Positions 9,859-47,883 of a DNA stretch of 64,000 nucleotides are shown piece after piece. The stretch spans positions 30,505,376 through 30,569,375 of the forward strand of contig CM119263.1 in the NCBI GenBank assembly GCA_051294375.1, written 5' to 3'. Numbering within the stretch: the first letter of the stretch is position 1; each line of letters opens with the position of its first letter. Below the pieces are notes generated by a model. The model searched no databases. It was not told the origin of the DNA and saw only the letters and a program-made list of their open reading frames with translations. This stretch comes from Paraspadella gotoi (taxonomy: Eukaryota > Animalia > Chaetognatha). A program made the translations under genes and the position numbers.

Positions 9859-10258
9859 ATATTAAACGAAACCGTAACTTAAAAATATTGTCCTTGGTTT
9901 AATGATGCTTTGGATAGAGTTTCGTTAACCGTTAATTTTTCAGGAAATTCTAAAACTAACATTTTTAACGGTTAACCGTTAAAATCGGTTAGTTTTATAA
10001 TTTAACTTTAAATTTAAAATACTAATATTTAAAACAAACTAAAGTATTTAATGGTAATTTTCTCTTTAATTTGGCTCCTGAACCTTCTATCTTCTATTTC
10101 AGATAGATAGTAAAAGATAGTTAGTAAAAGAAAAATTGTTTTGAGCTAACTATCTTGAAATTACCCATGATAAATGAGCTTATCATCTAATCAAATAATA
10201 CATCATGATAAATCTTGCATACAAGTTTTTTATTTTGCCTTAAGCATAATATAAATAT

Positions 10259-10515
10259 AAACAAGTTTGAGCAAACAATGTCGGATCTGCTACGATAATT
10301 AATTAATTAATTAATAATTAATTAATTATTAATAAATAATTATTAATAAATAATTATTAATAAATAATTATTAATAAATAATTATTATTAATTTATTATT
10401 TAATTTGTAATTAATTAATTAATTATTAATTAATTAATTAATTATTAATAAATAATTATTAAAATTATTAATTAATTAATTTTAAATTAATTAATTAATT
10501 ATATTTTATTTTATG

Positions 10516-10573
<58 letters not shown>

Positions 10574-11809: not shown

Positions 11810-11848
<39 letters not shown>

Positions 11849-11962
11849 GTTTTTGTTAAAAAAAATTGAATTAGGATTGAACTCGTAAAATTATGCATCG
11901 AATTCGTTGCATGTTATCATTTTGCTATTGCAACATCAAGTTTTAATTTCCTTTTTATTTCC

Positions 11963-11997
<35 letters not shown>

Positions 11998-12870
11998 GCA
12001 ATTATGCAATTGCGACGATCCTTATGCTTTTAAGATTTTTTAACTTGCATCATTTTTCAACTTGCATCATTTTTTCAACTTGCATAATTTTTTTAAATTG
12101 CAACATTTTTCCACATTAATTAATTAATTAATTAATTAAAACATTTATTAGTAATCATAAATCATAAAGATTCAAGTAAATGTGACTTATGTTTTTTCCA
12201 TTTAAACTCATTTCCACTGGCACAATTCCGTCAAAACTTTATATCTAGCTGATTAATGAATTATTGATTAATTAATTGACTAATTGATTAATTAACTGAT
12301 TAATTATTTGATTTATTAATACATCCTGCATATACATTTAATATAAAAGGAAAAGAAGCATAATCAATTTTTGTTTTTTTCCATTTAAACTCATTTCCAC
12401 TCAAACGATACCATCGAAACTTGATTTCCAGTTCAATCACACACTTTCCTACCCACATATAAAATTCCAGGCCAATCGCCCCATCCACTCATGAGCAATT
12501 GGTGTTCAAATAGTGAATTATATTTTTTTGTTTTTTCCATTTAAACCAATTTCCACTCGCACGATTCCCTCGAAACTTCATATACATCTCAATCACACAC
12601 TTCCCTACCCGCACACAAAATTTCATTCCAATCCATCCACGCAATCACGAGTAATTGGTGTTTTTTGCTAAGGTGGACGGACGGACGGACGGACGGACGG
12701 ACGGACGGACGGACAGACGGACGGACATCAATTTTTTTGCATAATTTATCATAATTCGATGTTCTGACATGATATAAGTTAGTGCCCGACAATATTGAGG
12801 GGGCGGACCGACGGACCGACAAAGTGAATTATAGAGTCGGGATCTGCTGATAAGCAGATCCGACTAAAAA
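10259..12870 (-). mobile_element. Composite HINE-like family A element containing family B pieces and (CT)n tracts
   Basis: Family A termini on the minus strand; internal family B 3' ends (ATTGCGACGAT..TTTTAAGA) at about 10575 and 12005. Mirror copy of 16148-18754. Confidence 0.75.
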
Positions 12871-13489
12871 GTCAAAGAAAGAAAAAGCACAATGTAATTC
12901 TAATTTTATATTAAGTTTTCTCGTTCTCTCTTTCTCTTTTTCGCTTTCTCTTTTTCTTTCTCTATTTCTCTTCCTCATTATTTTTCTAGTTGTTAGTCTT
13001 TCATAAACCATGACCATAATTATAAATATAAAATATGAATATTAGTTTATTGATTGAATGGTTTATTGATTGAGCTATTGATCAAAAGATTTATTGATTA
13101 ATAAATATTTTTTTTTCGTTTTATTAAAAGTATATCATCATTGAAGGATATTTTTAGTTAGCCTTAAGGTCTTTTTAAAGATTCCTTCCTTTTATTATTA
13201 ATTCTTAAATTTTTTATAATAATTTTTTTATTAATTTCTTTCATTCATTCAGTTTTATTTCATTTGCTTCTTTGTTCGTTCTAAAGAGGGAAAGAAAAAG
13301 AGAGAAAACGAAGAATTATTTATTTTTTTTAATAACAAAATATAATAAAAAGTTTTTTCATGTAAAAATTTAATTTGTAAGAATATGTATGTATTTACAT
13401 ATATATTATATTTCAAAATATTCTTTGATGTAAATGCATTGTGTAATGTAATCCTTTCTTTCGTTGTGATTAGAGATTAGAGTTTGAAA

Positions 13490-13792
13490 TAATTGGCAAC
13501 AACAATTTATTTTCAGGATGAAAACGGACATGTTTTTACAAGCCTTCTTCAGCGTCAATTTAGTTTGTAAAATTATTAGACAGATTTTGTGTAGAAGATT
13601 GGGGAGAGAGAGAGAGAGAAGGCAAAGTTTCTCTGTTTCTCTCTCTCTTTTTCTCTCTCTCTCCCCTTCTTCTACACAAAATCTGTCTAATAGTTTCACA
13701 AACTAAATTGACGCTGAAGAGGGCTTGTAAAAAAGCCGAAGCATGTACGTTTTCATCTTGAAAATAAATCGTTATTGCCAATTATTTCAAAC
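13490..13792. mobile_element. Inverted pair of Penelope-like pLTR fragments with a degenerate hammerhead core
   Basis: Local palindrome; CTGAAGA-GGGCTT-GTAAAA-AAGCC-GAAGC-ATGTA at 13714-13747. Mirrored at about 15225-15540. Confidence 0.55.
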
Positions 13793-14299
13793 TTTGTCTC
13801 TAAGATGTAAAAGCATAAAATTAGTTGAAGGGAAAAACAAAAAAAATTGGGAGAAGTAAAAAAATACTTGAAGGGCAGAAAAAAGGAGAGAAAAGAAAGG
13901 GGGAAAGAAGGAGGGGAAAAGAGAGAAAGAAAAAGAAAGGAACGTAAAGGTATAAAGTTAGGGGAAGAAAGAATAAGAAAGATTAGGATAGAAAAAAGAA
14001 AATAGAAAAAAGGAAAAAAAAATTGAAAAAATTGAGAAGAGAGAGAGGGGAAAATATGGTGAGAGAGGGAGAGGAGAATAAAAGAGGACGGGAAAAAAAT
14101 AATTTTCTTTTAAAAAATCAATTTCAGGTAAGGGCGGGGGAAAATTTTGAGGATTTATATTTTAAGAAAAGAACAGATTTTTTTATGACAAACAACGATT
14201 TTTATTAGACAATTTAGTCGGACAAGTATCGACTCTTGAAACATCCGACTAAATTGTCTATAGACCTTCGTTTCTTTATCTTTTCCTTTTCATCTTCAA

Positions 14300-14556
14300 A
14301 TATCCACCAAATTTAATATAAATCCTTGTTATGATTCTTTCTTTTCGTTGCGTTTAAAATTTTAGGAAAAAAGTTTTTGTATGATAAACAACAATTTTTA
14401 TTAGACAATTTAGTCGGACAAGTATCGACTCTTGAAACATCTGACTAAATTGTCTAATAAAAATTATTGTTTATCATACAAAAACTTTTTTCCTAAAATT
14501 TTAAACGCAACGAAAAAGAAAGAATCATAAGGATTTATATTAAATTTGGTGGATAT
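14300..14556. repeat. ~256-bp palindrome next to the 25-N gap
   Basis: ATATCCACCAAATTT...AAATTTGGTGGATAT arms around the loop ACAAGTATCGACTCTTGAAACA. Confidence 0.85.
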
Positions 14557-19154: not shown

Positions 19155-22100
19155 TTAGGTAACTACCTCATAGAAATCTTTGATATCTAAATACGTCTGC
19201 AACGAAGTTCCATACAACTTTTCCACGATCAATCCTGCTCTATCCCTGATTTTCTTTAAAGCTTTATAATTCATCCTCAAGAGAACGCAGTCACTCAGCG
19301 CTATCACGTCATTTCGCCAAACTTCGAGCTTGAAATCGGACGGATTTGAATTTTTTATTCCAAAACAAGCTCCGGGATTTAAAGTTTTACAATTGTAACT
19401 ATTATCCAGGACTTTTTTCGTCAAGCGATGTTTGTAGCTCGCTTTAGAGTTTTTTGACGATTTCGATGATTTTGTGGCCTTTCTAATGTCGGAACTCATT
19501 TCTTCATTCGGTATTGCAACTTTGCCGTTAAGAAGAATAAAAATAGAGTCAATTATTTGTCCTTCTTCCAAGATTTCTTGTCCTCTTGGTACAAAAACTG
19601 TGTTAAACTCGTTCGTAACAATAGACAGCTGATCTTTGGGTATCTGACTTAAGCCTAATCTATGATAGATGGTTCGATATTTACTCAATCTCATTTGAGT
19701 CAGCGTATGCGACGGAATGCAATCGTATTCATTGACAAGAGTTACCAAAAATTCGTCCGAAGAAAGATAAATTTCCTCGTTGATACTCGCCTGTTTTCTT
19801 AAACGATTATTAATTTCTTTAACTTCTAAAAACTGTTTGAGGTTTTTGAGCCTCTGCGATTTTTTAATGCTGGTTCGATTAAGTGAGATGAAAACTCCGG
19901 TAGTATTGGCAATTAAATAGATAGCATGAATTAGATTAATAAAGTAACAGACTATATACGTATAATTAAATATTTCTGTCCCAGAGTTTAGTTGTACATT
20001 TATCCACAAACCTGTGTTAGTGAATAAACTTGTTGATAAGTACAAGACAATTGAGTAAAAGGCCAATAAAGAATTCGATATATGATACTGATCGCCATCA
20101 AATATCAACAAACGCATCCCATTTTCATAATATTTTGGTAGAACATAAGAAACGATGTTTTCCTTTACCTTATGGATGTACCCTTTCAGTCCCAAGATAA
20201 CATGACCACTCTCAGTCAATGGAAACGTATTTTCTTGAAGGCCGTGTGCAAATGAAGAATAATATATTTTCTTCACGTCCGGGTCGCGACCGGGATTCAA
20301 AGAATAACTGTACTTGCTCCATATCGTACACCGACTCCCCTTCTGAGTCTCTGAATAAATTGGATCGCATATAGTATGCGTCAAAAAGATAGTGAGAAGG
20401 AGGATGTGAATCGTCGTTCTTGACAAATACTCCCAAATCAGAATAATTGTCAAGTATTCGGGACATACTTTTTTGAAAGCTCTCAGCCTGCGGAACGGTT
20501 CCAAGAAACGGACTAGTATATACGGTCGTAAATAAACGTATTCTGTTGTGGTATCGGCTAAGGAAATTAAAATATCCCATGGAAACACGATAACAACGTG
20601 ATACAAGATCGAGAATGGATTCATTATTTCCTTCCAGTTCGACGTAGTCACTAATGTTTGCTGAAACACCGCATAGGCTTCTGTGATTATCAAGCTGTCC
20701 AAAAATGAGTTAATTGCCCTCAGCAAGTTAATGTCGGCAAGCATTTGAGCCTGAAATATATTGATTATAACGGAAATTATATATATCGTGCTCATAATCA
20801 AACAATGTACGACGAATTGAAATCTTACGCTTAATAACCTAAATTTTATGTTCAAAACTTTTGCTATTCTGGGGTAGCGGTTTTTCTTTGTAAAAATGTA
20901 AAATGTCGAAGCGCAGTTGCTTATTAGTTCGTGAGTTTTTTCATCCCTCTGTTTGTGATTGAATAAAACTTGAATATCTTCGGAGCATATCTCCCTCGCA
21001 GGCGCGGTTCTTATCAACACATCCAGCCAATCCTTTTGCATTTTGCGATTATTTAGAAGGCCTCGGTATATGATCTCTTCTCTGATGTAAAATCCCATGA
21101 CGTAAGTTTTAGTGAGGAGATTAGCAGGTTGCATCCCGAGCCAAAGACCGATGATTCCCACGGTGTCGTTCGGCCCGTATTGCGTGACAACCCCATAATC
21201 GTCCACAGAGAGACAAACTCCTCTTATTATGCGAAACAATGATACGTCGGCAGTCGAAGAATACCAAATGACGTAGCCTTAAAAGCCGGGGATTACTATT
21301 ACTGAAGTAGCCTAAATACTGACATTTAATTTCTAAAATTTGGCACACAGTGCAACTTTTCAGTCGAGGAAACCAAAAATTCGAGGTGGTCTCCTCGTAA
21401 TATGAGGATGTTGAAGTAGCTCGTTAACATATAAAGTACAGCCCTTTTTTAATTTATCAATAGATTTGAATACAAATTTATTTTTATATTATTTTTAATA
21501 TTGTATTATTTTCTATCTTTTCGTTGCTAAGTGAATATTAAGAAAGGTTTATTGTTGTGCCAATCCCGGGGGGGCCAGCTCATTTTTGAGCTCTTTCTTC
21601 TCTTATATATATTTCACTTTTTCAATTTTCATTACTACTTACTAACTTGTTTAACTTTTGTTATTAATTCAAAATCAGCTTATTTCTAAGTTTGTCAAAA
21701 ATTTTTATCTTTGTTGTACATTGTCAAATGTAATTATTTCTCCCTCTCTCTCTCTCTCTCTCTTTCATTTTTCACCATTTCAAAATTATCTTCTTCTTCT
21801 CTGTTCTTACCTTCACCTGTCCTCTCTCATCTGGCCACTGTCCTTTACTCAGCCCTTTGTTGGAAACTCTCTCTCAATCTCTCTCATTCTCTCTTTCTCT
21901 CACTCCCTAACTTAATGTGTAGAGCATTTTGTTAATGTTTTTTCAAAGCTGAAGAAAACTCAAACCAATAGAGTCGAAACATGTACTCTTATTAAATAAA
22001 AAATCGTTGTATTGGCACAATAATAAACCTTTCTAAATATTTTTAATATTTAATTATTATTTTATTTTGAAATTTTATTTTTCTTACATACCTGGTGGAT

Positions 22101-25457: not shown

Positions 25458-26084
25458 ATATTATATAATGAAATTGGTACAACCAATATAAAAATTATCC
25501 ATTCATTTAATAAATAAGCTATCTTGCCCCTGACTTTGGACAGGCTTTGGTGGTTTAAGGCCTCCATCACTCTTACAAGATAATGACATAGCAGGTCCCT
25601 GCAAGCTTTCAATCAAGACTCTCTCACAGTCTCGTTTATTCACTCCCAGAGTATAATATAATATAAAAATTTTATATTATAGAACTCTTAATGATAAAAG
25701 TGATCAATTTTGGCCCGCCTTAATATCTAATGCAGGCTATACCTGTCCCTGCTAAATCCTAATACCTTTTTGATATTTACCTGGAGAGGTGAGACAATTA
25801 TCTATCTTGCTTGCAAATTTTGAAAGAAAAGTATATTCTAGGTCTTGTGTAAGGAGGGTTCAAGAGTCTGTGTAATAAAGGTAATTGTTATTACTTTAAT
25901 TTAATTTTACATGAAATGATATACTTATTTACCCTTTAGAATTGTTTTTGGCAGACATACTACAATAAGGTGATGATCTGAATAATAAAATGGAAGTACT
26001 TCAATGGAATTATAATTCAAATGTGTAATATTGGTATAAATTTGATTTGATTTGATTGTAAATAGTTGTTCCAAATTTAATAAT

Positions 26085-27197
26085 TGGTTCTAGTTGGTTG
26101 GCGACTTCGCCATGGCGAATGTCGCCAGGGCTTTGGCGATGTCGCCAGTCCCCCCACTGGCGACCTCGCCAGTGATAAAAGTAGCGAATATAATGAAAAG
26201 CGCAGCTAACACGGGGATGAGCATCACCTTCAGGCTCCTCTCCCAACCCTAACCCTAAACCAAACCTCCCGTTCAACTCTGTGCCTCTCCCTAACCCTAA
26301 CCGGGCCTGGGCTCCCGTACATCTCCATGCCTCAACCCTAACCCTAACTGCCTTTGATGCATCAACCACGGGCCCTCCCCAACCCTAACCCTAAACCAAG
26401 CCTTCCGTTCAACTCTGTGCCTCTCCCCTAACCCTAACCCAGGCTCAGCCTCCCGTACATCTCCGTGCCTCAACCCTAACCCTAACCGCCTTCGATGCAT
26501 CAACACGGGCCCTCCCCCAACCCTAACCCTAAACTAAGCCTCCCGTTCAACTCCATGCCTCTCCCCTAACCCTAACTCAGGCCCAGCCTCTGTACATCTC
26601 CGTGCCTCAACCCTAACCTAACCGCCTTCGATGCATCAACCATGGGTCCCTCCCGCAACCTAACCCTAAACCAAGCCTCCGTTCAACTCCATGCCTCTCC
26701 CCTAACCCTAAACCAGGCCCGGCTCCGTACATCTCCGTACCTCAACCCTAACCCTAATTGCCTTCGATATATAACCCACGGGCCTCTCTCCCAACCCTAA
26801 CCCTAACCGGGCCCAGGCCTCCCGTACATCTCCGTACCTCAACCCTAACCCTAATTGCCTTCGATATATAACCCACGGGCCTCTCTCCCACCCTAACCCT
26901 AAACCGGGCCCAGGCCTCCCGTACATCTCCGTGCCTCAACCCTAACCCTAACGCGGGCCTCTTGGTCATCAACAACACCCTCCCTACCCCTATCCTAAAA
27001 TTGACATTAATAATGCCTAAAATAAACTTAACTTAACTCAACCCTAACCCTAACCTAAATACTCAACCCTAACCCTAACTACTACCTACTCAACCCTAAC
27101 CCTAAACCAACTCAACCCTAACCCTAACCCTAATCTGAGTTATTTTAGGCGAAATTGCCATAACTAGAACGCTAGATGTAGTTCAGTGCGAAATCGC
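26085..27197 (+). repeat. Element arm of ~137-bp and ~93-bp units punctuated by (CCCTAA)2
   Basis: Unit anchor CCCTAAACCAAGCCTCCC recurs near 26253, 26390, 26529 and 26665. Homologous to 32716-33780, 33810-34861 and 44951-47883. Confidence 0.9.
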
Positions 27198-27204
27198 ATT
27201 TGCT

Positions 27205-28180
27205 TAAACCCTAACCCTAACCTACACTACTCAACCCTAACCCTAACTCAAAAATCCAAACATATCTACTAAAACTACTCAACCCTAACCTAAAACACAA
27301 TTTGTAAACTCTCTAACCCTAACCCATGCTTTGATAACGATATTCAACCCTAACCCTAACCCTAACCTCGAGAATCTCATACGTCAAGCTAAAAAATGCA
27401 TTTGTAAACTCTCAAACCCTAACCCTAACTCAAAAATCCAAACATACCTACTAAAACTACTCAACCCTAACCCTAAAACACAATTTGTAAACTCTCTAAC
27501 CCTAACCCATGCTTTGATAACGATATTCAACCTAACCTCGAGAATCTCATACGTCAAGCTAAAAAATGCATTTGTAAACTCTCAAACCCTAACCCTAACT
27601 CAAAAACTCAATACGTCCTTATTTTTATGTTTTGTAAACTCTTCAACCCTAACCCTAGCTAAAAAACGCGTTTGTAAACTCCCTAACCCTAACCCTAACT
27701 CGAAAAACTGAATACGTCCTTATTTTTATATTTTGTAAACTCTTCAACCCTAACCCTAGCTAAAAAAACGCGTTTGTAAACTCCCAAACCCTAACCCTAA
27801 CTAAAAAAATTCAATATGTCCATATTTTATATTTTGTAAACTCTTCAACCCTAACCCTAGCTAAAAACGCGTTTGTAAACTCCCTAACCCTAACTCGAAA
27901 AACTCAATACGTCCTTATTTTTATATTTTGTAAACTCTTCAACCCTAACCCTAGCTAAAAAACGCGTTTGTAAACTCCCTAACCCTAACCCTAACTCGAA
28001 AAACTCAATACGTCCTTATTTTTATATTTTGTAAACTCTTCAACCCTAACCCTAGCCAGAATCTCATACATTGTATTTATTTTCATTTAAATATCAACGT
28101 AAACTGCTAAACCCTAACCCTGTAGTTCAAATATTAGTATTTTTTACCATGTGTAAACTGCTCAACCCTAACCCGTAGTA
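27205..28180 (+). repeat. CCCTAA-containing satellites (~180-bp x2, then ~99-bp x5)
   Basis: AATACGTCCT anchor near 27610, 27711, 27813, 27906 and 28007. Confidence 0.85.
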
Positions 28181-29274
28181 CAAATATTACTATTTTTGAT
28201 TTCGTAGTACTTTCTTTGTTGCCTGCCGTGTGCACGCCTAAAATCGGCCTGTACGAGGTTCCAACGCAATAGGATCCTATGTTAAACGCCTTTCATTGTT
28301 TGGCTCCCGGGACAAAAATTTTTTCTCCCTAAACAGAGGTTCTTATATATTTGGGGAATGGGTCTGGCTTTTTCTGGAAATTTGAGTGTCTCACCTACCC
28401 TTATAAGAGAGCCTCTTTAACGTTATTCCTATTGGGTTGGAACCTCGTAGTGAATCGAATTTCCTATGTTGTAGAGGCAGGCAGCGGGTATCGGTGCCCG
28501 AGCCGTGGCTTGGGACTGAGAGCCATCGTTGTCTGCGTCGACTTGATCGCCCGGGAGACGGGCATTGGTCCTTGACCGTCACGGCCTCCTCCGCCAGGAT
28601 ATCCGGGTAGGAGGGGGCAACGACGGGCACCGTATTTCGATAGACCATGGTGGTTCTTCGGCGGTCACCGGCGATCGTCGACCGCAGATTTGAGATTCCC
28701 GCCGCTGATCGAGGGCAGCGCTGGCTGGGCAACGGTCACAACACGATAGACGGATTTTTCGGCGATCACCGGCGATCGTCGACCGCAGATTTGAGATTCC
28801 CGTGGTTGATCGAGGCAAGCAAGACGGAGACGGTGTTAAAAAAAGTGGTGCATGCGTGGGATTCGATCCCGTGATTCGCCGTGATCGCGGGGGAGAATTT
28901 CATGAAACGGTGAACGTTGGACCCGAGTTCGTTCGCTCGTGCTCATTTACGGGTAATGGGGATGTCGTAGGTTAAGAGAAAAGTCGCGGCCCACGCCTTT
29001 TCTCTGTCCCGCGCCGTCGCCAATTATTCGTCTATAAATAAGCGCGGGTATCGAACCTGTGACTCGCCGTGACTCCGTCAGGGCGATCGCTTCTCGAAGG
29101 GAAAAATATAGGCGATCGGCGAACCTGGGTTCTTTCGCTCCCTCGCCGAATTACAGTGTATATTTACGAGTAACGATGTCGTCGGTTACGGGAAAAGTCG
29201 CGGCCAAGGCTTTTCTCAATGTCCCGCGCCGTCGTCAATTATTCGTATTTATATAAGCGCGGAGAAGGATCCTT

Positions 29275-29441
29275 TGACTCGCCGTGACTCCGTCAGGGCG
29301 ATCGCGGGGGAAAAAATATATAAAATATTGTAAAAAAGTCGTGCCTGCTCGGGATCGAACCCGTGACTCGCCGTGACTCCGTCAGGGCGATCTCGGAGAA
29401 AATTTCAGGCCCGAGCGAGCACGGTCGCGAGAGGAATGAAA
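29275..29441. repeat. ~167-bp direct repeat, copy 1 (copy 2 at 32357-32523), flanking the recombinase gene
   Basis: TGACTCGCCGTGACTCCGTCAGGGCGATC...GCACGGTCGCGA(G/A)AGGAATGAAA is present at both sites. Confidence 0.85.
29332..29423 (-). ncRNA. Candidate Pol III small structured RNA (second copy about 32414-32504)
   Basis: On the minus strand, 5' CGTGCTCGCTCGGG pairs with 3' CCCGAGCAGGCACG; internal B box GGGTTCGATCCC; followed by AC-TTTTTT. Confidence 0.4.
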
Positions 29442-29916
29442 AAAAGTAGTTCCGTCAGTCTTCGGTGAACATCGGACCCGGGTTCATTCGCTCATTCACC
29501 GAAAAGTCAAATAATGCTAAAATATGACAAAAATACCCGCGAACTGGAAAAGCCCGGTAAAAATGTCGGATACACACATGTTTCGGGACTGGGTTCTCTC
29601 GTTCATGCGCCGCCATTTTTGTATTCATACGCGAATCATTTCTCAGTAATAATAAAGAACGGCAAGGAAATAGAGGATGGTAAAGGACGGAATAGTGCAA
29701 AAAGCACGAAAAAAACGCTAAATGTTGGAATGAAAGCGTTATACTCGGCCGCGGGTCGGTCTCGGTCTCGGTCTTGGTCTCGTCGGAAAAAAAAGGATGG
29801 AAAGCGCGGAAAAGCGCGAATATAGAACGAAGTCAAATGTCCCCGGTGTCGGTCTCGATCGTCGGGGAAGGGAAAAAAAGGACGGTAAAGTCGCCCAAGC
29901 TTTCCCGGGGTGACCT

Positions 29917-29923
29917 TATAAAA
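29917..29923 (+). promoter_or_regulatory. Candidate TATA box of the recombinase gene
   Basis: TATAAAA about 125 bp upstream of ATG 30043 in otherwise GC-richer sequence; AATAAA at 31802-31807 follows the ORF. Confidence 0.35.
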
Positions 29924-30042
29924 ATTCGTTTCTCTACCGTGACCTGAGAAGCGAATGAGCCAGGCAGTAAGTGACCATAGTTCACGGTAGGCTATGAGCG
30001 ATCTCGCAGCAAGGGATCGATCAGTTTGTGTTTTTGCTAACT

Positions 30043-31626
30043 ATGGATCATTTTACTTGCCTCGAATGTAAAAAAAATTACCCACGAGAAACCCGCGGGA
30101 AAGGAATAACTTGGGCAAAATCCACGAACAAAAAATGGGTAAAAAATTCGCTGTGGGAAAGAGACTGCTTACCCGTGTCCCGAAAATGAATGCAATGGTT
30201 GCAGCGCAACCTATGCACGACTTCGTGAACATTTTGGAACACGCACGGGTTCCGAATGACGACGCTTTCAGCTACGGAGGGAGAGGACTTCGCAGGCGCG
30301 CAAGACAAAAACTGTGCGCTATTCTAGATGGAAAAAACTGGCCTGATGCCCCTGCATCGCCCGCTAATGAGATTCCCACGAACCCGGAGAAAATAACGAC
30401 AACGGCCTCGGAGCAGATAGAGGGGACGGTAGTGGCGGAACCGGCTGTTGATACTTCTTATGATCTCTCTACCCCTTCCAACAGCCATCTTCTTCCACAA
30501 CTCGGTCCGGTCTCCTGTGGTTCGTACTCCTTCTCCTAAGGTAATTCGTAGGGAGGGGAGGGTACAGTAGGTACACGCGCTGGAAAATTTCGGAAGGGGC
30601 CTGTTCACGGGGTAATAACCTTTTTCCCTGCTTACAGATTCCCCAAGCTAAACTCCCGGATGATCTACGTAGTTGGATGGACGACCGCTACTCTCGCGCT
30701 ACCGGTGTCTGCGTATTCTGTTCACATTGGCCGGTTCATGGCTTTCTGCCATCCTTTCAGCGCGGAATACGCCTTTGAAGCAAAAAAGCTTGAAAAGTTT
30801 TGTCCCTATCGACGGTCCCTACTACGCGCAGTGTAGCGGTCTCCAGCCTCGGAAAGTCTACGTAGTGTACCTCGTCGCCGCCGCCGGAATATGAGCCGTC
30901 AGAGATGGATAGGCTGATCTGGGATGACATCCGGCGCGTGACACAAAGGCAAAAACGCGTCAGACAGACCAAGGTTACCCTGACCAAAAACCGGTAGGAC
31001 AGATTTAAAGTCACTACGTCCCCTCTTTCGGAACCCACGAGACGACTATCGCTTCTTGGACATCTCTCGGTCGGCAAAGAAGCGAGCTATAACACGGACT
31101 GAATACAATTTCGTCTCGGCATATGTAGCTTTGAAGGTGTTCTCCCAACAAAATGCAAAACGGCTGGGAAATCTTGCCCGCCTTACCCTCTCATCAATCT
31201 ACAAAGCGCGGGGGTGAGCGGAAAGTCCGGGCCTTGGGTAGTGCAGGTCCGAATGGCGACAAAGATTAAAGCTCCGGATGCATATGTGATAAATGATCCC
31301 TGTCGAAGGGGCTTCTGCTACGTTTTATTCGCACATACGTCCTTCTCTCAAACAGTCGCAGCCTCACGGTATCTATTTCCGCAGTATGATGGCCAGGCTC
31401 GGGGCACCTCGGCCTTTGCCGCTATCCTTCGGACCTTCGCTAGGTCCCGGGAATTGATGGTTTCAACATAACAACCTCTACGGCGTGCTGTGGCCTCGGC
31501 AGGCGCTGAGGACGCCGGAACGGACAGGCAGCGCTTGCCCAGGCGCTGGGTCACACGCAAGTGATTCAGCGTCAGTTTTACCTTCGCGGATCGGATGCAC
31601 AAAAAGTCCGAATCATCGGAAGTTGA
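30043..31626 (+). CDS. Tyrosine recombinase (Crypton-like) with N-terminal C2H2-like zinc fingers; frameshifted in this assembly; intron 30541-30637
   Basis: Manual translation gives NAKRLGNLARLTL (Arg 31161), WVVQV..K, RYLFP (31367), ITTLRRAVAS (about 31470-31498) and LAQALGHTQVIQRQFY (His 31552, Tyr 31579), in the correct order and spacing. Splice sites AG|GTAATT..TTACAG|. Confidence 0.75.
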
Positions 31627-32715
31627 CGACTAGTTACTCGCGAATTCGGCCAGGAGAAGTCATGGAAAAAACGTTTACGGCCGCGTAAACTTGATCCGTC
31701 AGACTCACCAACTGGGTCGGGGGGTCGGAAGAGGGTACGGGGATGTAGCTTTGACTGTTTCCTTTTGATGCCTAAAGATTCATGCCCAATTAATGCATAG
31801 TAATAAACATGTATTTTAATTTCCAATGTTGAGGACTCCATGGTGAAGTAACAAAAAGTAGGGTGAAGTCCCGTCCCCGTGTAGCTAGTTTTAAACACGC
31901 GGGACAGGCATGAAAAGCAAGACCGGCCGCGGGGTTGGTCTCGAATGAAAGATGGTATGGAAATAGCTGAGTGGTGTCCCGTGGTGGGACTAGCGGCTTC
32001 CGAGCATAGTTATAGCAAAAAACAAGTTTCACGCCTTGCAGGAAACAGGCGGACGGGTATATAAAAGCATGCCAGCCGTGGGATTGCTCTAGAATGAAAG
32101 ATATTGAGAAGACCGAGCGGTGTCCCACAGTGGACTGCGGCTTCCTAGGCATGGGTATTTGATCGAGAAAGCCGAGCGGTGCTCCCATGGCGGGACTGCG
32201 GCCTCCAATCGTCGGTAATACATGCCGTCGAACCATTGGGTAGTTCGGGTCCGAGAGTCGACTCGACTACTCCTCTACGGGCACGTCTGGGTAAGGGGAA
32301 GTTCTTTCTCTGAGCCTAAGTATTGCTCTTGGTTGTCCGCGTGTGATTCGAACCCGTGACTCGCTGTGACTCCGTCAGGGCGATCGCGGGGAAAAAATAT
32401 ATAAAATATTTGTAAAAAAGTCGTGCCTGCTCGGGATTGGAACCGTGACTCACCGTGACTCCGTCAGGGCGATCTCAGGAGAAAATTTCAGGCCGAGGGA
32501 GCACGGTCGCGAAAGGAATGAAAGATGGTATTGAGAAGACCTGAGCGGTGTCCCACAGTGGGACTGCGGCTTCCTAGGCATGGGTATTTGATTGAGAAGC
32601 CGGAGCGTGACGGCTNNNNNNNNNNNNNNNNNNNNNNNNNNNNNNNNNNNNNNNNNNNNNNNNNNNNNNNNNNNNNNNNNNNNNNNNNNNNNNNNNNNNN
32701 NNNNNNNNNNNNNNN

Positions 32716-34861
32716 GCCGGCGTTCACGCACGAGTTCAGGTGTGGTTCTAGTTGTTGGCGACTTCGCATGGCGATGTCGCCAGGGCTTTGGCGATGTCGC
32801 AGTCCCCCACTGGCGACTCGCCAGTGATAAAAGTAGGGAATATAATGAAAAGCCGCAGCTCACGGGATGAGCATCACCTTACAGGCTCCTCTCCCAAACC
32901 CTAACCTAAACCAAAGCCTCCCGTTCAACTCTGTGCCTCTCCCCTAACCCTAACCCGGGCCTGGGCCTGCCCGTACATCTCCATGCCTCAACCCTAACCC
33001 TAACTGCCTTTGATGCATCAACCACGGGCCCTCCCCAACCCTAACCCTAAACCAAGCCTTCCGTTAACTCTGGCTCTCCCCTAACCCTAACCCAGGCTCA
33101 GCCTCCGTACATCTCCGTGCCTCAACCCTAACCCTAACCGCCTTCGATGCATCAACCACGGGGCCCCCCCCCAACCCTAACCTAAACTAAGCTCCCCGTT
33201 CACTCCATGCTCTCCCCTAACCCTAACTCAGGCCCAGCCTCCTGTACATCTCCGTCCTCAACCCTAACCCTAACGCCTTCGATGCATCAACATGGTCCCT
33301 CCCCAACCACTAACCCTAAACCAAGCCTCCGTTCAACCCATGCCTCTCCCTAACCTAAACCAGGCCGGCCTCCCGTACATCTCCGTACCTCAACCCTAAC
33401 CCTAATTGCCTTCGATATATAACCCACGGCTCTCTCCCAACCCTAACCCTAACCGGGCCCAGGCTCCGTACATCTCCGCCCTCAACCCTAACTAGCCTCT
33501 AACCCAGTCTAACCTACACGCAGGCTGCCTCGTCTACAACCCTCGCCCTCATCAACAACACCCTCCTATCCCTATCCCTAAAATGACATTAATAATAAGC
33601 CTAAAATAAACTATACTTAACTCAACCCTACCTAACCCTAAACTACTCAACCCTACCCTAACTACTACCTATCAACCCTAAACCCTAAACCAACTCAACC
33701 CTAACCCTAACCCTAAACTGAGTTTATTTTAGGCAAAATCGCCATAACTAGAACCTAGATGTAGTCACAGCTAAATCGCCAAATGGCGGGGCGTCATGGC
33801 TAAGTCGCGATTTGGCGATTTCGCACTGAACTACATCTAGCGTTCTAGTTATGGCGATTTGAGCCTAAACTAAACTCAGATTAGGGTAGGGTTAGGGTTG
33901 AGTTGGTTAGGGTAGGGTTGAGTAGGTAGTGGTTAGGGTTGAGTAGTTTAGGGTTAGGGTTGATAGTTTAGGTTGGTTAGGGTTGAGTTAAGTTAAGTTT
34001 ATTTTAGGCTTATTATTAATGTCATTTAGGGATAGGGGTAGGGAGGGTGTTGTTGATGACCAGAGCCCGCGTTAGGTTAGGGTGAGGCACGGAGGATGTA
34101 CAGAGGCCTGGGCCGGTTTTAGGGTTAGGTTGGGAAGAAGGGCCCGTGGGTTATATATCGAAGGCAATTAGGGTTAGGGTTGAGGTACGGAGATGTACGG
34201 GAGGCCTGGGCCCGGTTTAGGGTTAGGGTTGGGAGAGAGGCCCGTGGTTATATATCGAAGGCAATTAGGGTTAGGTTGAGGTAACGGAGATGTACGGGAG
34301 GCCGGCCTGGTTAGGGTTAGGGGAGAGGCATGGAGTTGAACGGAGGCTTGGTTTAGAGGTTAGGGTTGCGGGAGGGACCCATGGTTGATGCATCGAAGGC
34401 GGTTAGGGTTAGGGTTGAGGCACGGAGATTGTACGGAGGCTGAGCCTGGTTAGGGTTAGGGGAGAGGCACAGAGTTGAACGGAAGGCTTGGTTAGGGTTA
34501 GCGGTTGGGGGAGGGGCCCGTGGTTGATGCATCAAAGGCGTTAGGGTTAGGGTTGAGGCATGGAGATGTACGGAGGCCCAGCCCGGGTTAGGGTTAGGGG
34601 AGAGGCACAGAGTTGAACGGGAGGTTTGTTTAGGGTTAGGGTTGGGAGAGGAGCTGAGGTGATGCTCATCCCCGTGTTAGCTGCGTTTTTCAATTATATT
34701 CGCTACTTTTATCACTGGCGAGGTCGCCAGTGGGGGGACTGGCGACATCGCCAAAGCTGGCGATATCGCCATGGCGAAGTCGCCAACCAACTAGAACCAC
34801 ACCTGCAACTCGTGCGTGAATCGCCGCGACATCGCTATTTGAATGAACTACAACTTAGGTT
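32716..34861. repeat. ~2.1-kb palindrome of two TTAGGG-laced arms around an asymmetric spacer at 33785-33809
   Basis: A CCCTAA-strand arm is followed by a TTAGGG-strand arm; spacer GGCGGGGCGTCATGGCTAAGTCGCG. Confidence 0.85.
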
Positions 34862-35009
34862 CTACGTGAGTTTCGTCAATGTCAAGCCTAACCTAGCCCT
34901 TGTTCAATCCCTCGGGAGCCACAGTCCGCCGTGGGACACCCCTTGCCCTTCAATGCCGCAGCCCGCATGGGACACCCGCTCGACTCTCAGTAGGTCGAGA
35001 GTCCCGCGA

Positions 35010-35930
35010 CCCCCATTGACAAATGTTTCACATGCGGACAACAAGAGCGGTACTTAGGCTCAGAGAAAGAACTTCCTTACCCAGACGTGCCCGTAGAGAG
35101 TAGTCGTCGACTCTCGGACCCGAACTACCCAATGGTTCGACGCTGCATTACCGGTGATTTGAAGCCGCAGTCCCGACCTGGGACACGCTGGCCCCTTCTT
35201 GCGTGATCGGACAAGCCCAGGTGGCCTGGCGATCACGAGGGTCCCGTGACCCCATGACAAATATTTTCACACGCGGACAACCAAGACGGTACTTAGGCTC
35301 GGAGAAAGAATTCCCTTTACCTAGACTGCCCGTAGAGAGTAGTCGAGTCGACTCCCCGGAACCCTAACTACCAATGGTTCGACGCGTGATACCGCGATTT
35401 GGAAGCCGCAGTCCCGCCTTGGGAACACCGCTCGCCCCTTGCGTAATTGGACCAGACCGTGGGCCTGGCGATCACGAGGGTCCGCGGACCCCCATTGAGA
35501 AATGTTTTCACACCGCGGACAACCAAGAGCGGATACTTAGGCTCAGAGAAAGAACTTCCCCTTACCCAGACGTGCCCGTAGAGAGTAGTCGAGTCGACTC
35601 TCGGGACCCGAACTACCAATGGTTCGACGCGTGTATTACCGGACGATTGGAAGCCGCAGCCCACCAGTGGGAACACCCGCTACGCCCTTGCGGAATTGAC
35701 CAGACCGTGGGCCTGGCGATCACGAGGGATCCCAGCGACCCCCATTGAGAAATGTTTTCACACGCGATAACAACAAGAGCATGACTTAGGCTCAGAGAAA
35801 GAACTTCCCCTTACCCAGGACCGTGCCCGTAGAGAAGTAGTCGATGTCGAACTCTGGACCCGAACTACCAATGGTCGACGCATTAATTACGAGATTTGAG
35901 CCTGCAGTCCCGCCTGCGGACAACGCTCGC
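35010..35930. repeat. ~240-bp GC-rich tandem array (about 4 units)
   Basis: CCCATTGAGAAATGTTTTCACAC anchor near 35010, 35250, 35490 and 35740; a partial unit lies inverted at about 32180-32345. Confidence 0.85.
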
Positions 35931-36184
35931 TTTCAGATAAACCTTCATTGCCTATGGAAAAGCCGGTGCCCACTGGGATCACCGCTCAGGACTTCTCACC
36001 ATTGAACCGAACAGAACAGAGTCTTTACCAGAAATTCCTTACCAAGTGCCAGTAACGGAGCACCGGACTACCAAGGACGATCAGTAAACCCTAACGAGGG
36101 CGCATGCCGTACACCCCTTTATCAACCCAGCCCAAAGTCCCTTGACAGCGTCGTCTACCATACTTCATCTCGCAAACGACTCTC

Positions 36185-38253
36185 GCCTGAAATTCTGGAT
36201 CGTGACAGTCCGGTGAGCTCACGGGTTCCCAATCCCGAGCGGGCACGACTTTTTTACAAACTAATTTATATATTTTTTTCCCCGGATCGCCTGACGGAGT
36301 CACGCGAGAGTCACGGGTTCGAATCACATCGTCGGACAACCAAAGGAGCAATAAACTTAGGCTCAGAGAAAGAACTTCCCCTTACCCAGACGTGCCGTAC
36401 GAGAGTATCGAGTCGACTACTCGGACCGAACTACCCAATGTTCGGCCCATGTATCTGACGGATTGGAGCCGCAGTCCCGCCATGGACACCGTCGGCTTTC
36501 TCGATCAAAATACCAGCTAGGAAGCCGCAGTCCCACTCGTCAGGGACACACCGACTCGGTCTCTCAATATCTTTCATCTAGAGCAATCCACGCTGGCCAT
36601 GCTTTTATATACCCGTCCCGCCTGTTCCTGCAAGGCGTGAGAATTGTTTTTTGCTATAACTATGCCCGGAAGCCGCAGTCCCACCACGGGACACACCTGA
36701 CAGCTATTCCATACCATCTTCATTCGAGACCAACCCGAGGCCGGTGTCTGCTTTTCATGCCTGTCCGGCGTGTTTTAAAACTAGCTACACGGGAGACGGG
36801 ACTTCACACGCATACTTTTGTTACTACCACACATGGAGTCACTCACATTGGAAATTAAAATACATGTATATTACTATGATTAATTGGCATGAATTTTAGG
36901 CAGTCCAAAAGGAAACAGTCAAAGCTACATCCACGTACCTCTTCCACCCCCCAGACCCAGTTGGTGAGTCCTGACGGATCAAGTTTACGCGGCAGCGTAA
37001 AACGTTTTTCCATGACTTCTCCTGGCCGAATTCGCGAGTAACTGAGTCGTGTCAACTTCCGAGATCGCGAGACTTTTTGTGCATCCGATCCGCGAAGAAA
37101 ACTGACGACTGAATCCTTGCGTGGACCCCAGCGCCTGGGACAAGCGCTGGCCCTTTCCGTTTCTGGCGTCCTCAGCGCTGCCGAAGGCCACAGCCACGCC
37201 CGTAGAGTTGTTATTTGAAACCATCAATTCCCCGCGGACCAAGCAAGGTCCGAAGGATAGCGGCAAAGGCCGAGTGCCCGACCTGCCATCATACTGAGCG
37301 GAAATAGATACCGTGAGGCTCGACTGTTTTAGAAGAATGACGATTATGCGAATAAAACGTTAGCAGAACACCCCTTTAGACAGGGGATCATATTATCACA
37401 TATCTCCGGAGCTAATCTTTTCGCCAATTCGGACCTGCACTACCCACAAGCCCGACTTCCGCTCACCCCCCGCGCTTTGTAGATTGATGAGAGAGGTAAG
37501 GGCCAAGATATTCCCAGCCGTTTTATGACATTTGTTGGGAGAACACTCCAAAGACTACATATCCGAGAGCGAAATTGTATTCAGTCCGTGTTATAGCTCG
37601 CTTCTTTGCAGACCGCAGAGATGTCCAAGAAGCGATAGTCGCTCGTGGGTCCGAAGAGGGGACGTAGTGACTTTAAATCTTGTCCTACCCGGTATTTGGT
37701 CAGGGTAACCTTTGGTCCTGTCTTGACGCGTTTTTTGCCTTGTGTCACGCGCCGGATGTTCATCCCAGAATCAGCCTATCCATCTCTGACGCTCATATTC
37801 CCGCGGGCGACGAGGTACATAGTAACTTCCGAGGCGGAGACGCTACACTCGCGTAGTAGGGACCGTCGATAGGGACAAAAAACTTTTCAAGTTTTTGCCT
37901 TCAAAGGCGTATTTCCGCGCGAAAGGATGGCAGAAAGCCATTGAACCGGCCCAATGTGAACAGAATATCGCAAGACCGTAGCGCGAGAGAGCGGTCGTCC
38001 ATCCAACTACGTAGATCAACCGGGAGTTAGCTTGGGGAATCTGTAAGCAGGGAAAAAAGTTATTACCCCGTGAACAGGCCCCTTCCAAATTTATCCAGCG
38101 CGTGTACTACTGTACCCCCCTCCCTACGATACCTTAGGAGTAAGGAGTACGAACCACAAGGAACGGGACAGTTGTGGAAAAGATGGGTGTTGGAAGGGGT
38201 AAGGAATCATAAAGAAGTATAACACCGTTCCGCACTACCGTCCCCTCTATCTG
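36185..38253 (-). repeat. Error-rich inverted duplicate of 30414-~32490 (second read-out of the recombinase gene)
   Basis: Reverse-complement similarity with many independent indels. Confidence 0.85.
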
Positions 38254-38508
38254 GCGACATCGCTATTTGAATGAACTACAACTTAGGTTTAAATCTAAAC
38301 TTTTGCGCAATTTTTGTGACACTAATATTTTGGAATATGTTAAAATTAATACGGATGGCTCATTACTGTGGGATTGAAAAACCTTACGCAAGCTTTCTAG
38401 GAAATGTGGTTTGTTCATCGTATGATCTTTATAAATTACAGAAAGCACTGTTTATAGTGTTTATAGTTTTGTGTTAGGTTTTCATTTTGGTTTCATATTA
38501 AAAATATA

Positions 38509-43480: not shown

Positions 43481-44950
43481 AGCTTATATGAATCACAAAA
43501 GGTTAAAGTTTTTTATATTTAAATTTTATTTTTCAATTTTTACATTAAAATGCCGAAAAATAACTGGAAAGTAACCGCAACACTTTTTTTTTCCATCATG
43601 GTAGTATGTTTCATAATATAAACTAATTAATTTATTTAAGGAGTAAACTTTAAAGAATAAGAAGCGGGTATTGTACTGATTCAATCCCAACCCAGTGCTT
43701 GCCATAAGGGAAGCTTAGGGACGGCGCTAAACCGCCTAGAGATTTTTAACCACTAGCTTAAGCCCAGTTCCAAGATCAAAGGTGTAAAAAATTTATGGAT
43801 ATTCAGCTGACTCGTGGCCACTTCGCGCGTTATGAATACTAGTGTGCCCGGATCCTATTGAAGATTGCTTCACTCCCTTAACTAAATAAAATATTTTGAA
43901 TGGGCATAGCAATCCCTAAGCCCGGTTCAAAGCCTCACTAGTCTATCGTAGCAATCGGAGATAACAGCATTTTTGAGGATAAGGCGCTAAGTGGGCTGAA
44001 GATGACTATCCGCAACTTGCTTAACCCCTCTTGCAGCCATGGAACAGGTCCTGGGCTTAGAAACAGGCTTGGGGGTTTTCCAGGCCCCCAAGGCGGTTTT
44101 TAGCCATCCTTATGCTTCCTGCAGGGTAGGTACCAGGTTGGGATTGAACCCGGTACCTAGTGGTCATGAGCTGATGGCTTTACTCAATGAGCCACCTGGT
44201 CATGACTGAAACTGTCTTATAGTTATTCTCAAAAATTCTAACTACACATCTGGTCAAAAAAAAGTTTAAAAGTTATGATAAAAGCATTTTATTTAGTTAT
44301 TTAAAAGAAAATAATATTTAAGATTCAATTAATATATTGTTAGATTACCATTGGTTTTTAGTACTACTTTTATGCAACAAGGGAGAGATTCGCAGAGGCT
44401 GCGCAAATATGAAGGGTTCAGCTCTTCCTAAATATATTTTATAATTTTTTTGATTTTGTCAATTGTTGTGGCATTGTACTGCAAAATATCTTATTTTATC
44501 CTTAACCAGATTTTTTTAATGATTTTGCAGTCAGGTAAGTTTCCGGGTAAACCTTTGAGCATCTTAATCCTATTTTTATCGTCGCAAACGCAAAGCGGTG
44601 GTTTTGTACATAAATGGCGTTAGCGTCGGAATTTTATAATAAAATAATTATATTAATAATAATTATTCATTGCTGAATGACTAGCGATAATTCTTTTTTT
44701 TTTAACTATAATAATAATAATAACTAAAATATTTAGCTTAAAAACTTTGTTATAAGCTCGAATGAAAAATATTTGTTTTAGCTTTTAAATTAATAAGCTT
44801 TTTAATTAATAGGATGACAGACAAATGAGATAGTAGGGGGTTAAAAGTTTAAATTTTTTTTGACCACATCTGTAGTTCTTACTTTCCCAGTATAATTTTT
44901 GAAATATGTTGACAAATTGGTTTCATTACAAATTTTTCTCGTGAATTATA

Positions 44951-47883
44951 CCCAAGTTGTGGTTCATTCAAATAGCGATATCACCGGCGATTCATGCATG
45001 AGTCACAGGTGTTTCAAGTTGGCGACTTCGCCATGGCGATATCACCAGGGGCAAAGTTGTAGTTCATTCAAATAGCAACGTCGCCGGCGATTCACGCATG
45101 AGTCGCAGGTGTGGTTCTAGTTGGTGACTTTGCCATGGCGTTATCGCCAGGGCCCTGGCGATGTCGCCAGAACCCCCACTGGTGACCTTGCCAGTGATAA
45201 AAGTAGCAAATATAATGAAAAGCGCGATTTAGAGGAGAGGCTCGCGGCTGATGTTGAGACACGGACCTCCCGTTCAACCCTAAACCTAACTGCCTTTGAC
45301 ACGTTAACCATGGGCCCCTCCCAAAACCATAACCCTAAACCAGGCCTCCCGTTTAACTCCGTGCCTCTCCCCCAACCCTAAATCAGGCTTCCCGTTCAAC
45401 TCTGTGCCTCTCCCCCAACCCTAAACCAGGCCTCCCGTTCAACTCCGTGCCTCTCCCTCAACCCTAAATCAACTCAACCCTAACCTTAAACCACCTCAAC
45501 CCTAACCCTAATCTGAGTTTAGTTTAGGCGAAAACGCTATAACTAGAACGCTAGATGTAGTTCAGTGCCAAATCACCAAATCGCGACTTAGCCATGACGC
45601 CCTCGCCAATTGATTTAAATGTGAACTACATCTAGCGTTCTAGTTATGGCGATTTTGCCTAAACTAAACTCAGATTAGGGTTAGGGTTGAGGTGGCTTAG
45701 GGTTAGGGTTGAGTTGTTTTAGGGTTAAAGTTGAGTTGGTAGTAGTCTAGGGTTAGGGTTGAGTAGTCTAGGGTTAGGGTTGAGTAGTCTAGGGTTAGGG
45801 TTGAGTTAAGTTCATTTTAGGGTTAATGTTAATGTCAATTTTAGGGTTAGAGGTAGGGAGGGTATTGTTAATGAACAGAAGGCCCGCGTTAGGGTTAGGG
45901 AAGGTACTGGCGAGGGACATTAGGATTTGGGTTGAGGCACAGAGATATACGGAGGCCTGCGGCCTGGTTTAGGGTTAGGGTTGGGAGAGAGGCCCGTGGG
46001 TGATGTGTTGAAGGCGGTTAGGGTTGAGGCATGGAGATGTACAGGAGGCCCGGGCCTGGGTTAGGGTTAGGGGAGAGGTACGGATTTGAATGGGAGGCCC
46101 GGTTTAGGGTTGGAGGAGGGGCCTGTGATTGACACATCAATGGCGGTTAGGGTTGAGGCACAGAGATGTACGGTAGAGCGTTGAAAAATAACAAAATATA
46201 ACAAATCAAGTGAGGTACATAGATATTTTAGTGTAATGTAGTCTGTAGAATTCGATGGTTATGACCATTTTTTTGTATAATTTTATCTTTCTTGTCGGAA
46301 ATGACGGTTTTTAATGTATATAAAATTGTTACAAAATAGCAAAACCATTATAAGTTATGATAAATCAAATTATTAAAATTTTATAAAAATTTATATGAGC
46401 TTTTGAAATATAAAAATAAAGACTTATAAAAATATTTTGGTAAGTTTATTTCTAAATTTTATGTTTTATAAAAAGTTAGTTAACTATATTTATTAATAAT
46501 TATGAGTAAAAATTAGGTTAAAGTTAAAAAATAATAATTTCAAAATTTTTTTTATGGATTTGCATTCTTTGCAAAAAGTTGATATAAGAAAATATAATTT
46601 TTATATCAAAATTATGTCATTAAGTTGGTCAAAATTCAGAAAAACTATAATTTTAAGCCAAAAATTGATAGAAAGCGTTTTTAGATTGATTGGATTGATT
46701 GATTGGATTGGGGGAGGAGCCCATGGGTGATGCATTCATGTCCGTCTCATACTAATAAAATCGTTGTCTGATCAATCTAAAAACGCTTTCTATCATCGAT
46801 TTTATTAATATGAGACGGACATGTCCGTCTCATACTAATAAAATCGTTGTTTGATCAATCTAAAAACGCGTTCTATCATCCAAACACAACGAAACGAAAG
46901 GAAATAACGAAGCCAAAAATTGAAAAATTAAACAAAAATAATAGTTTTTAATATTTTTAACCTACTTAATGAAAGAATTTTTTAAAATGGATTATACTTT
47001 CTTATATCAACTTTTTGTAAGGAATTCAAATCCGGTTTTAAAATTTAAAATTTAAAATTTTTTCACTTTAGCTTATTTTTTATTATTATTTATTAATAAA
47101 TATAGCTATAAAATATAATATATATAAAATATATAATAAATATATAATATATAATAAATATATAATAATATATATAATAAATATATAATATATAATAATA
47201 TATAATAAAATAAAATATAAAATTTGTAAATAAACTTACATAATATGAAAATAAAAACCCATATAAATATTTTGGTAAGTTAAATATGGCTTTTATAAAA
47301 TCTTAATAATTTGAGTTTCTTATACTCTCCAATGTTTGCTCCATTTTAATAGCACCTTATATGCTACAAAAATCGCCATTTCCGACAAAGAAGATGAGAC
47401 TATACAAAAAAATGGTTATCATCATCGAATTCTACAGACTTTATTACACTAAAAGAGCTGTGTACCTCGCCTGGGTTAGGGATAGGGGAGAGGCACGGAG
47501 ATGAAAGGGAGGCCCGGTTTAGGGTTAGTGTTGGAGGAGGTGCCCGTGGTTAACATGTCGAAGGCGGTTAGGGTTAGGGTTTATTGGGAGTTAAACGGGA
47601 GGCCTGGGTTAGGGTTGGGGGAGAGGCACGGAGTTGAACGAGAGGCCTGGTTTAGGGTTGTGGGAGGGGCCCGTAGTTGACGTGTTGAAGGCAGTTAAGG
47701 TTAGGGTTGAACGGGAGGTGCGGGTTAGGGTTAGGATTAGGGGAGGAGCCCATGGGTGATGCATTCATCCCCGTGTCTCAAAATCAGCCGCAAGCCTCTC
47801 CTCTAACTTGCGTTTTTTATTATATTTGCTACTTTTATCACTGGCGAGGTCGCCATGGCAAAATCTCCAACCAACTAGAACCA
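44951..47883. mobile_element. Diverged non-coding palindromic copy of the TTAGGG-arm element
   Basis: Starts CCCAAGTTGTGGTTCATTCAAATAGCGA, has the same central spacer CGCGACTTAGCCATGACGCCC at 45582, and ends CAACCAACTAGAACCA. The right arm is interrupted at about 46175-47470. Confidence 0.8.
46207..47474. mobile_element. AT-rich long-TIR MITE nested in the arm element
   Basis: GAGGTACATAG..GTCTGTAGAATTCGATG on the left and CATCGAATTCTACAGAC..GTGTACCTC on the right. Confidence 0.6.

Follow-up and report, generated by a model that had tools for sequence, protein, structure and literature searches.

The locus raises two questions: whether a badly broken stretch of coding-like sequence is a real tyrosine recombinase (YR) gene and, if so, what kind of mobile unit it belongs to. 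The window, that is, the whole 64-kb stretch of DNA that was analysed, has a GC content of about 33% overall, with a GC-rich island at 26-38 kb in which the gene lies (Table 1). Open frames outside the island encode cyclic-nucleotide-binding or ion-channel domains, which suggests an animal host, probably an insect going by the style of the repeats. They include a host gene cluster with long open frames at 7300-8559, 19155-21278, 51478-52269 and 55148-56053, all on the minus strand and cyclic-nucleotide-binding or ion-channel-like, with a Pfam match in three of the four. A repeat family of ~600 bp is also abundant in the window (938-1611, with copies at 3296, 5335, 12263, 16147, 49843 and 52848); some members adjoin (GGAC)n runs, and the family presumably resembles the DINE-1-like repeats of insects.

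Table 1. Features in and around the GC-rich island, in window coordinates
Feature	Coordinates	Strand	Remarks
Arm X, one arm of the GC-rich foldback family	26085..27197	+	136-bp and 97-bp subrepeats with TAACCC doublets; outermost ~60-70 bp of fuller copies missing
AT-rich tract, 35% GC	27198..28200	+	101-bp and 170-bp subrepeats with TAACCC doublets; likely 5' part of the recombinase unit
Hairpin module, 23-bp inverted repeat	28220..28483	.	z -5.25, 0 of 100 shuffles
GC-rich upstream region of subrepeats	28484..30042	+	TATAAAA at 29917-29923
Direct repeat A1, 167 bp	29275..29441	+	copy A2 at 32357-32523, 93% identical; closed-stem tRNA-B-box-like unit on the minus strand
Predicted exon 1	30043..30540	+	ATG at 30043; CxxC near start; S/T/P-rich end; broken by indels in the window
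Predicted GT-AG intron, 97 nt	30541..30637	+	GT at 30541, AG at 30637, pyrimidine tract
Predicted exon 2	30638..31768	+	tyrosine recombinase catalytic domain (31083-31617), preceded by a putative core-binding part; 3' end uncertain
3' region	31769..32615	+	AATAAA at 31802-31807; B1 at 32092-32346; A2 at 32357-32523; B2 from 32516 into the gap
Assembly gap, 100 N	32616..32715	.	actual length may differ from 100
Complete foldback element F	32716..34861	.	arm X, 25-nt spacer near 33790, inverted arm X', outer end at ~34859
Second copy, probable error-rich mirror of the 3' part of the unit	34862..38253	-	four 239-bp repeats, 3' region, gene cut inside exon 1
Older diverged foldback copy	44950..46173	.	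no recombinase gene
Further arm fragment	47469..47883	-	no recombinase gene

The motifs from which the preliminary description had recognised a tyrosine recombinase are all present, namely NAKRLGNLARLTL (R codon at 31161), WVVQV..K (31235-31270), RYLFP (F at 31376), ITT and LRRAVAS (31471-31498, in two frames) and LAQALGHTQVIQRQFY, with H at 31552 and Y at 31579; in the window they are spread over three frames. The upstream TATAAAA and downstream AATAAA that it had mentioned were found as well. As candidate catalytic residues exon 2 offers R 31161, K 31262 or 31268, R 31481, H 31552 and Y 31579. A scan of the entire window on both strands, with frameshifts allowed, avoids picking frames by eye. 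It was made with an integrase profile, for which 56 recombinase domains from bacteria and phages were found and the 42 non-redundant ones were used. The score peaked at 31617 on the plus strand with 37.3 bits, the second-best place in the window reaching 24.8 bits; Markov shuffles of the region gave a mean of 16.7 bits (sd 2.1), and none of the 150 matched the peak. Under a harsher frameshift penalty the peak was 31.3 bits and the second place 24.8 bits, again with 0 of 150 shuffles. The traceback (31083-31617) needs two frameshifts, runs through one in-frame stop and aligns profile positions R54, F111, R147, H170 and Y179 with R31161, F31376, R31481, H31552 and Y31579. That is, with frames that were not hand-picked, the profile recovers the box I arginine in an RxxExxxL-like helix, the HxxR arginine, and the H/W residue followed nine residues on by the catalytic tyrosine. 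The profile lysine of the beta2-beta3 hairpin lands on R31250, with lysines nearby at 31262 and 31268, and the HxxR histidine is absent in every frame alignment, a threonine taking its place when the break is read across. Of the R..K..(H/T)xxR..LGH..Y signature proposed earlier, R, R, H and Y are borne out by the profile, the HxxR histidine is missing, and the lysine would be one of the two nearby. Judged by sequence, the gene is a real, divergent tyrosine recombinase, homologous to the integrase catalytic domain. Read-through scores with X at the breaks (10 and 19 bits, 0 of 2000 shuffles) came from hand-picked frames and were rejected as independent evidence. Atlas neighbours of the box I piece were tyrosine-recombinase clusters (0.83-0.84, one lead at 0.84 carrying DUF3435 on 22% of its members) and unnamed animal proteins (0.89), all below 0.9 and hence leads only; the piece 31208-31468 had no neighbour. 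Coding-like sequence would continue past 31626 to a stop near 31766, and a gene end at 31626 is doubtful because the two copies in the window differ in frame there. The GT-AG intron described earlier does have its splice dinucleotides and pyrimidine tract, but no joint across it was seen among the listed contig pieces, no run being recorded as RNA.

Pfam, to which the preliminary description had pointed, returned no recombinase or integrase match for 15 stop-free pieces and six frames. In these results DUF3504 was absent on all pieces and DUF3435 on pieces and frames, with no match to a C2H2 finger on the gene pieces or to the Myb family on gene pieces and frames. No recombinase match was obtained in PHROGs (seven pieces or frames) or in the PDB (one frame and one profile), and predicted exon 1 had no family match in the Pfam and PHROG searches. 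Profile-profile alignment of noisy pieces with 13 E. coli recombinases (hhalign) was negative, and the core-binding part did not match the bacterial N-terminal profile; both results, like the one from Pfam, count against the Crypton reading favoured below. Word-indexed protein searches with gene pieces yielded no relatives among 81 and 60 candidates, which tells little because such a search with one host channel-like frame was equally blank (0 of 579). In a full HMMER search, a profile of window pieces compared with 1.84 billion representatives gave as its sole match a chance tandem repeat; only two of the eight alignments of window pieces were largely in register, and the long ones offered no position for the LGH..Y piece. 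Five scans of viral contigs, two of metagenome contigs and two of genome contigs produced no true match (the one locus returned was discarded as a chance match in the opposite frame of a phage gene), and tblastn against phages gave a single match at E=4. The structure prediction proposed earlier was carried out on two gene pieces, but the models (pLDDT 58 and 40) were too poor for a fold search. In the libraries searched, which do not include Repbase and Dfam, no eukaryotic relative of the recombinase was retrieved. No reverse transcriptase (RT), transposase or viral family was matched on exon-2 frames or stop-free gene pieces, and no open stretch of more than 165 codons lies around the gene. 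In the visible sequence, which excludes the 100-N gap, there is no RT, RNase H or gag, nor any capsid, packaging or replication gene. The recombinase is the sole enzyme of the unit in the visible sequence, and to this extent the earlier statement that RT is lacking holds.

Parts of the stretch occur in 9 of the 11 listed sequencing runs, which share a single organism label and come from three studies; four of them were compared with the window. Read depth was taken as a relative level only and not as copy number, and flank depth varies strongly between runs (1.1, 26 and 2280). The unit is present as uniform contigs in these four runs, which represent three studies. A single short-read contig covers 29810-31906 in run X1 (33 substitutions and 33 gaps relative to the window) and another does so in run X9 (38 and 42, respectively), the two runs belonging to different studies. 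Twelve of 73 indel rows were examined, and the seven that fall in the gene are present in all four runs, at full depth in X1 and X9; in exon 1, the indels at 30141 and 30484 occur in four of four. Six of these indels lie in the overlap of the two window copies, and four of the six match a gap of the same sense between the copies. As weak evidence, the 19 listed substitutions tested comprise no stops, seven silent changes and ten at third positions. Since the indels relative to the window are common to the short-read contigs of all four runs, the breaks in the gene are likely long-read errors, and most copies probably carry an intact two-exon gene, as judged from the rows examined. The earlier suggestion of a gene intact in vivo is therefore likely, and the recommended comparison with other reads did yield contigs spanning the gene.

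Aligned with the first copy of the gene, the second shows 40 mismatches but 179 gap events, and because gaps dominate the differences it has the appearance of a raw long read. At 15 sites where the short reads depart from the first copy, the second agrees with the first in 13, has a gap in two and agrees with the reads in none, which makes 13 of 13 comparable private substitutions shared. The second copy is bracketed by an identical 36 bp (34826-34861 and 38254-38289), and the foldback next door is a palindrome, so that a read running from gene to foldback can be attached backwards. The second copy is probably an assembly mirror, that is, a raw long read joined on in reverse orientation. Support for this comes from an inverted duplicate of 5.5 kb elsewhere in the window (8930-14433 and 20083-14582, around a 25-N gap at 14.6 kb; five mismatches, 49 gaps), likely another assembly mirror. 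It is possible, alternatively, that the second copy is a true one in a strain whose whole family has these substitutions. If it is a mirror, the order of the locus becomes host - X - tract - hairpin - gene - 3' repeats - X X' - host. The idea that the duplicate repairs frameshifts fares less well in this light: the differences it was based on are there (G5 at 31210-31214 versus C6 at 37466-37471, and two 11-12-nt motifs at 31471 and 37201), but as independent evidence they are weak, the two copies probably being the same DNA read once with errors. The 239-bp tandem repeat (34996-35930 and 32173-32346) occupies the deepest bin of 28200-32600 in runs X2 and X5, and for this reason it may in addition form a satellite independent of the gene.

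The preliminary description had placed the gene at the core of an element with telomere-repeat arms. TTAGGG occurs as doublets inside subrepeats of 97-170 bp and reaches at most three copies in tandem; a pure telomere array is found at neither side of the gene, the longest pure run being three hexamers. The arms are far deeper in reads than the gene: in X1 the contig at the start of arm X has a depth of 1946 versus 130 for the gene, and the arm-end bins of X9 stand at 783 and 1228 versus 48, so that the foldback family is roughly 10-25 times deeper. Contigs of the AT-rich tract (27415-27659) have depths of 108.5 in X1 and 63.7 in X9, and contigs bridge 28115-28284 and 28255-28637 (the latter in X9) at depths of 55.9 and 43.5. 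This comparable depth and the bridging contigs indicate that tract, hairpin and gene likely belong together as one unit, which would start at 27198, end past the gap and measure about 6-7 kb. The GC-rich arms are part of a separate, more abundant foldback family that also occurs without the gene. Contig joints were judged on 24 of 6936 pieces, among which no bridge was seen at 27197/27198 (arm to tract) or 34861/34862 (foldback end to 3' region). Behind 34859, four X9 contigs continue into varied sequence (agreement 0.57), which points to a real end of the foldback, and joints cross the foldback centre. What stands of the earlier picture is that the TAACCC-laced tract and the hairpin run with the gene, but the arms belong to a deeper family. 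That the arms define a new YR family is not established, given this separateness and the fact that PMC3212892 already places YR-only elements from insects and other animals among the Cryptons.

In X1 and X9 the right part of the hairpin module continues into other sequence, and its depth is ~10-17 times that of the gene (depth 2168 in the X1 bin 28347-28493, with loose ends at 28469). It is shared with a more abundant family, and the module (28220-28483) possibly represents a separate family of small elements. An X9 contig matches the flank 25723-26089 with 24 differences and continues without arm X; it is a related arm-less site, which may be another locus.

We consider, with moderate confidence, that a repeated unit with one recombinase gene and no other in view is a Crypton-type DNA transposon, which would excise and re-insert as a circle. 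By analogy with the Crypton model (PMC3212892), the unit would leave its site as a circle and then be re-inserted by its own recombinase. A single crossover of an arm-bearing circle into an F element would leave X - unit - X X', a pattern which fits the locus, where the unit lies between arm X and the whole foldback F, but which nested insertion would equally yield. Like CryptonA and CryptonI (PMC3212892), the unit has a tyrosine recombinase alone, an animal host and abundant gene-less derivatives. Several features count against this assignment. Cryptons are described without long repeats (PMC3212892, PMC13465315), and animal Cryptons without terminal repeats (PMC3212892), whereas here there are long subrepeats with TAACCC doublets. 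Cryptons have terminal direct repeats of 4-6 bp or none, from which the unit would depart if the arms belong to it. No target duplication longer than 5 bp was found between the outer flanks of the locus, nor did element ends or an empty site emerge. Unlike CryptonA and CryptonI, the recombinase has no DUF3504 match and offers only the atlas lead. CryptonV elements (as cited in PMC8869645 and listed in PMC4455052) are YR-only DNA transposons too, some of them inserting in microsatellites. The unit, in contrast, has no pure microsatellite flank. We take the NAKRxG and T-x-L-R motif style to resemble that of the widespread animal YR group labelled CryptonV. All in all, the unit would work like a Crypton and may belong to a named group.

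A different relationship between gene and arms is conceivable, if rather unlikely: the unit may be the autonomous member of the foldback family, with arm X as its real end, and its recombinase may mobilise the numerous X-X' copies that lack a gene, or use them as targets. This corresponds to the armed element of the preliminary description. The arms do flank the gene on both sides, a CTC-AACCCTAACCCT module is common to arm and AT-rich tract, and an X5 contig connects arm-type sequence to 27205. Moreover, gene-less derivatives usually far exceed the autonomous copy, Cryptons included (PMC3212892). It is opposed by the left arm lacking an outer end, by the right side having X then X' and not X' alone, by the two unbridged junctions among the 24 pieces, and by the absence of a target duplication. 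Furthermore, arm fragments lie at four places in the 64-kb window even with the 36-bp end repeat left aside, which makes chance nesting easy. A tentative extension, to which we give little weight, would have the recombinase recognise the foldback centre or ends, insert the circle there and mobilise gene-less partners; the TTAGGG doublets would recruit a telomere-type DNA-binding protein, and the host telomeres may consist of another motif. If the host is an insect, TTAGGG is probably not its telomere motif, since TTAGG is given as the ancestral one for insects (PMC8977481). A literature search that covered neither Repbase Reports nor most of the subscription journals brought up no YR-only element of animals whose foldback arms are laced with TTAGGG.

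Telomere-like repeats beside a YR in an animal genome also bring to mind the telomere-associated recombinases of endogenous nimaviruses, and related 28S-rDNA-specific ones are multi-exon (PMC10871703). The gene might accordingly be a remnant or satellite of a DNA virus, with a nimavirus-, nudivirus- or Polinton-like-virus-type integrase targeting telomere-like repeats. YRs beside inverted repeats in insect Polinton-like viruses (PMC11296320), the GC content of the unit (52% versus 34% in the flanks) and the small-RNA-like units on the gene's flanks would agree with such an origin. We regard it as improbable, however, as no second gene is in view, the viral contig scans gave no true match, a pure telomere array is found at neither side and a C2H2 finger was not matched. 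The nimaviral recombinases reside in viral genomes of 278-401 kb flanked by (TAACC)n arrays (PMC10871703), whereas the present unit has about 6-7 kb, one gene and hexamer doublets.

The repeats around the gene, in the order A1 - gene - B1 - A2 - B2, recall the split direct repeats (A1-B1-A2-B2) given for Ngaro and VIPER in PMC6681497 and PMC13465315. The same sources describe YRs for Ngaro, VIPER, TATE and DIRS elements, with TATE inserting in telomeric hexamers. We hold it to be improbable, all the same, that the unit is an RT-less derivative of a Ngaro/VIPER-type retroelement. A1 is internal, ~2 kb inside gene-linked sequence and not at the 5' end, neither RT nor RNase H nor gag is in view, the apparent intron is kept, and local duplications in a region rich in subrepeats can produce the same order.

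It is just as improbable, in our judgement, that the unit has lost its mobility and is now a domesticated gene, or one multiplied passively, within a tandem or subtelomeric array whose copies recombine with one another and so stay uniform. The collapse of the copies to one 2.1-kb contig in two runs, the numerous spacer-like subrepeats and the replaced catalytic histidine would suit such an array, but the surroundings of this locus are ordinary AT-rich sequence with host channel genes, and four other catalytic positions are kept or have the residue nearby.

Starships, whose captains carry DUF3435, are likewise YR-driven DNA elements, and one atlas lead points their way. The Starship recombinase is intron-bearing. 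Starships are fungal, though, measure tens to hundreds of kb and carry cargo, and the present gene has no DUF3435 match.

Recombinase-only transposons of animals are poorly known, with ends, targets and mechanism mostly assumed. This recombinase is uniform, repeated and probably intact, and the searched libraries hold no detectable relative; it would thus extend the diversity of tyrosine recombinases known from eukaryotes. Should it drive or target the foldbacks, it would name an enzyme behind long palindromic repeats and provide a new site-specific recombinase with many natural sites; if there is no such link, it would be one more divergent Crypton-type family masked by assembly errors.

Two smaller observations concern the repeats next to the gene. 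A contig joint in X9 from 32497 to 29810 was considered as proof of a circle and rejected, since its 45 letters fit repeat A1 as well. Within A1, a unit of ~95 nt on the minus strand (29326-29425) is closed by a terminal stem and contains a T run as well as a B box like that of tRNA genes (z -4.2, 0 of 200 shuffles). ARAGORN found no tRNA and Rfam gave no match near its cut-off. Related units lie at 28836-28900, 29040-29095 and 32335-32490, and the two that were folded failed the shuffle comparison, with z values of -1.1 and +1.3. The 29326-29425 unit looks like a Pol III small-RNA gene and is put forward as a candidate.
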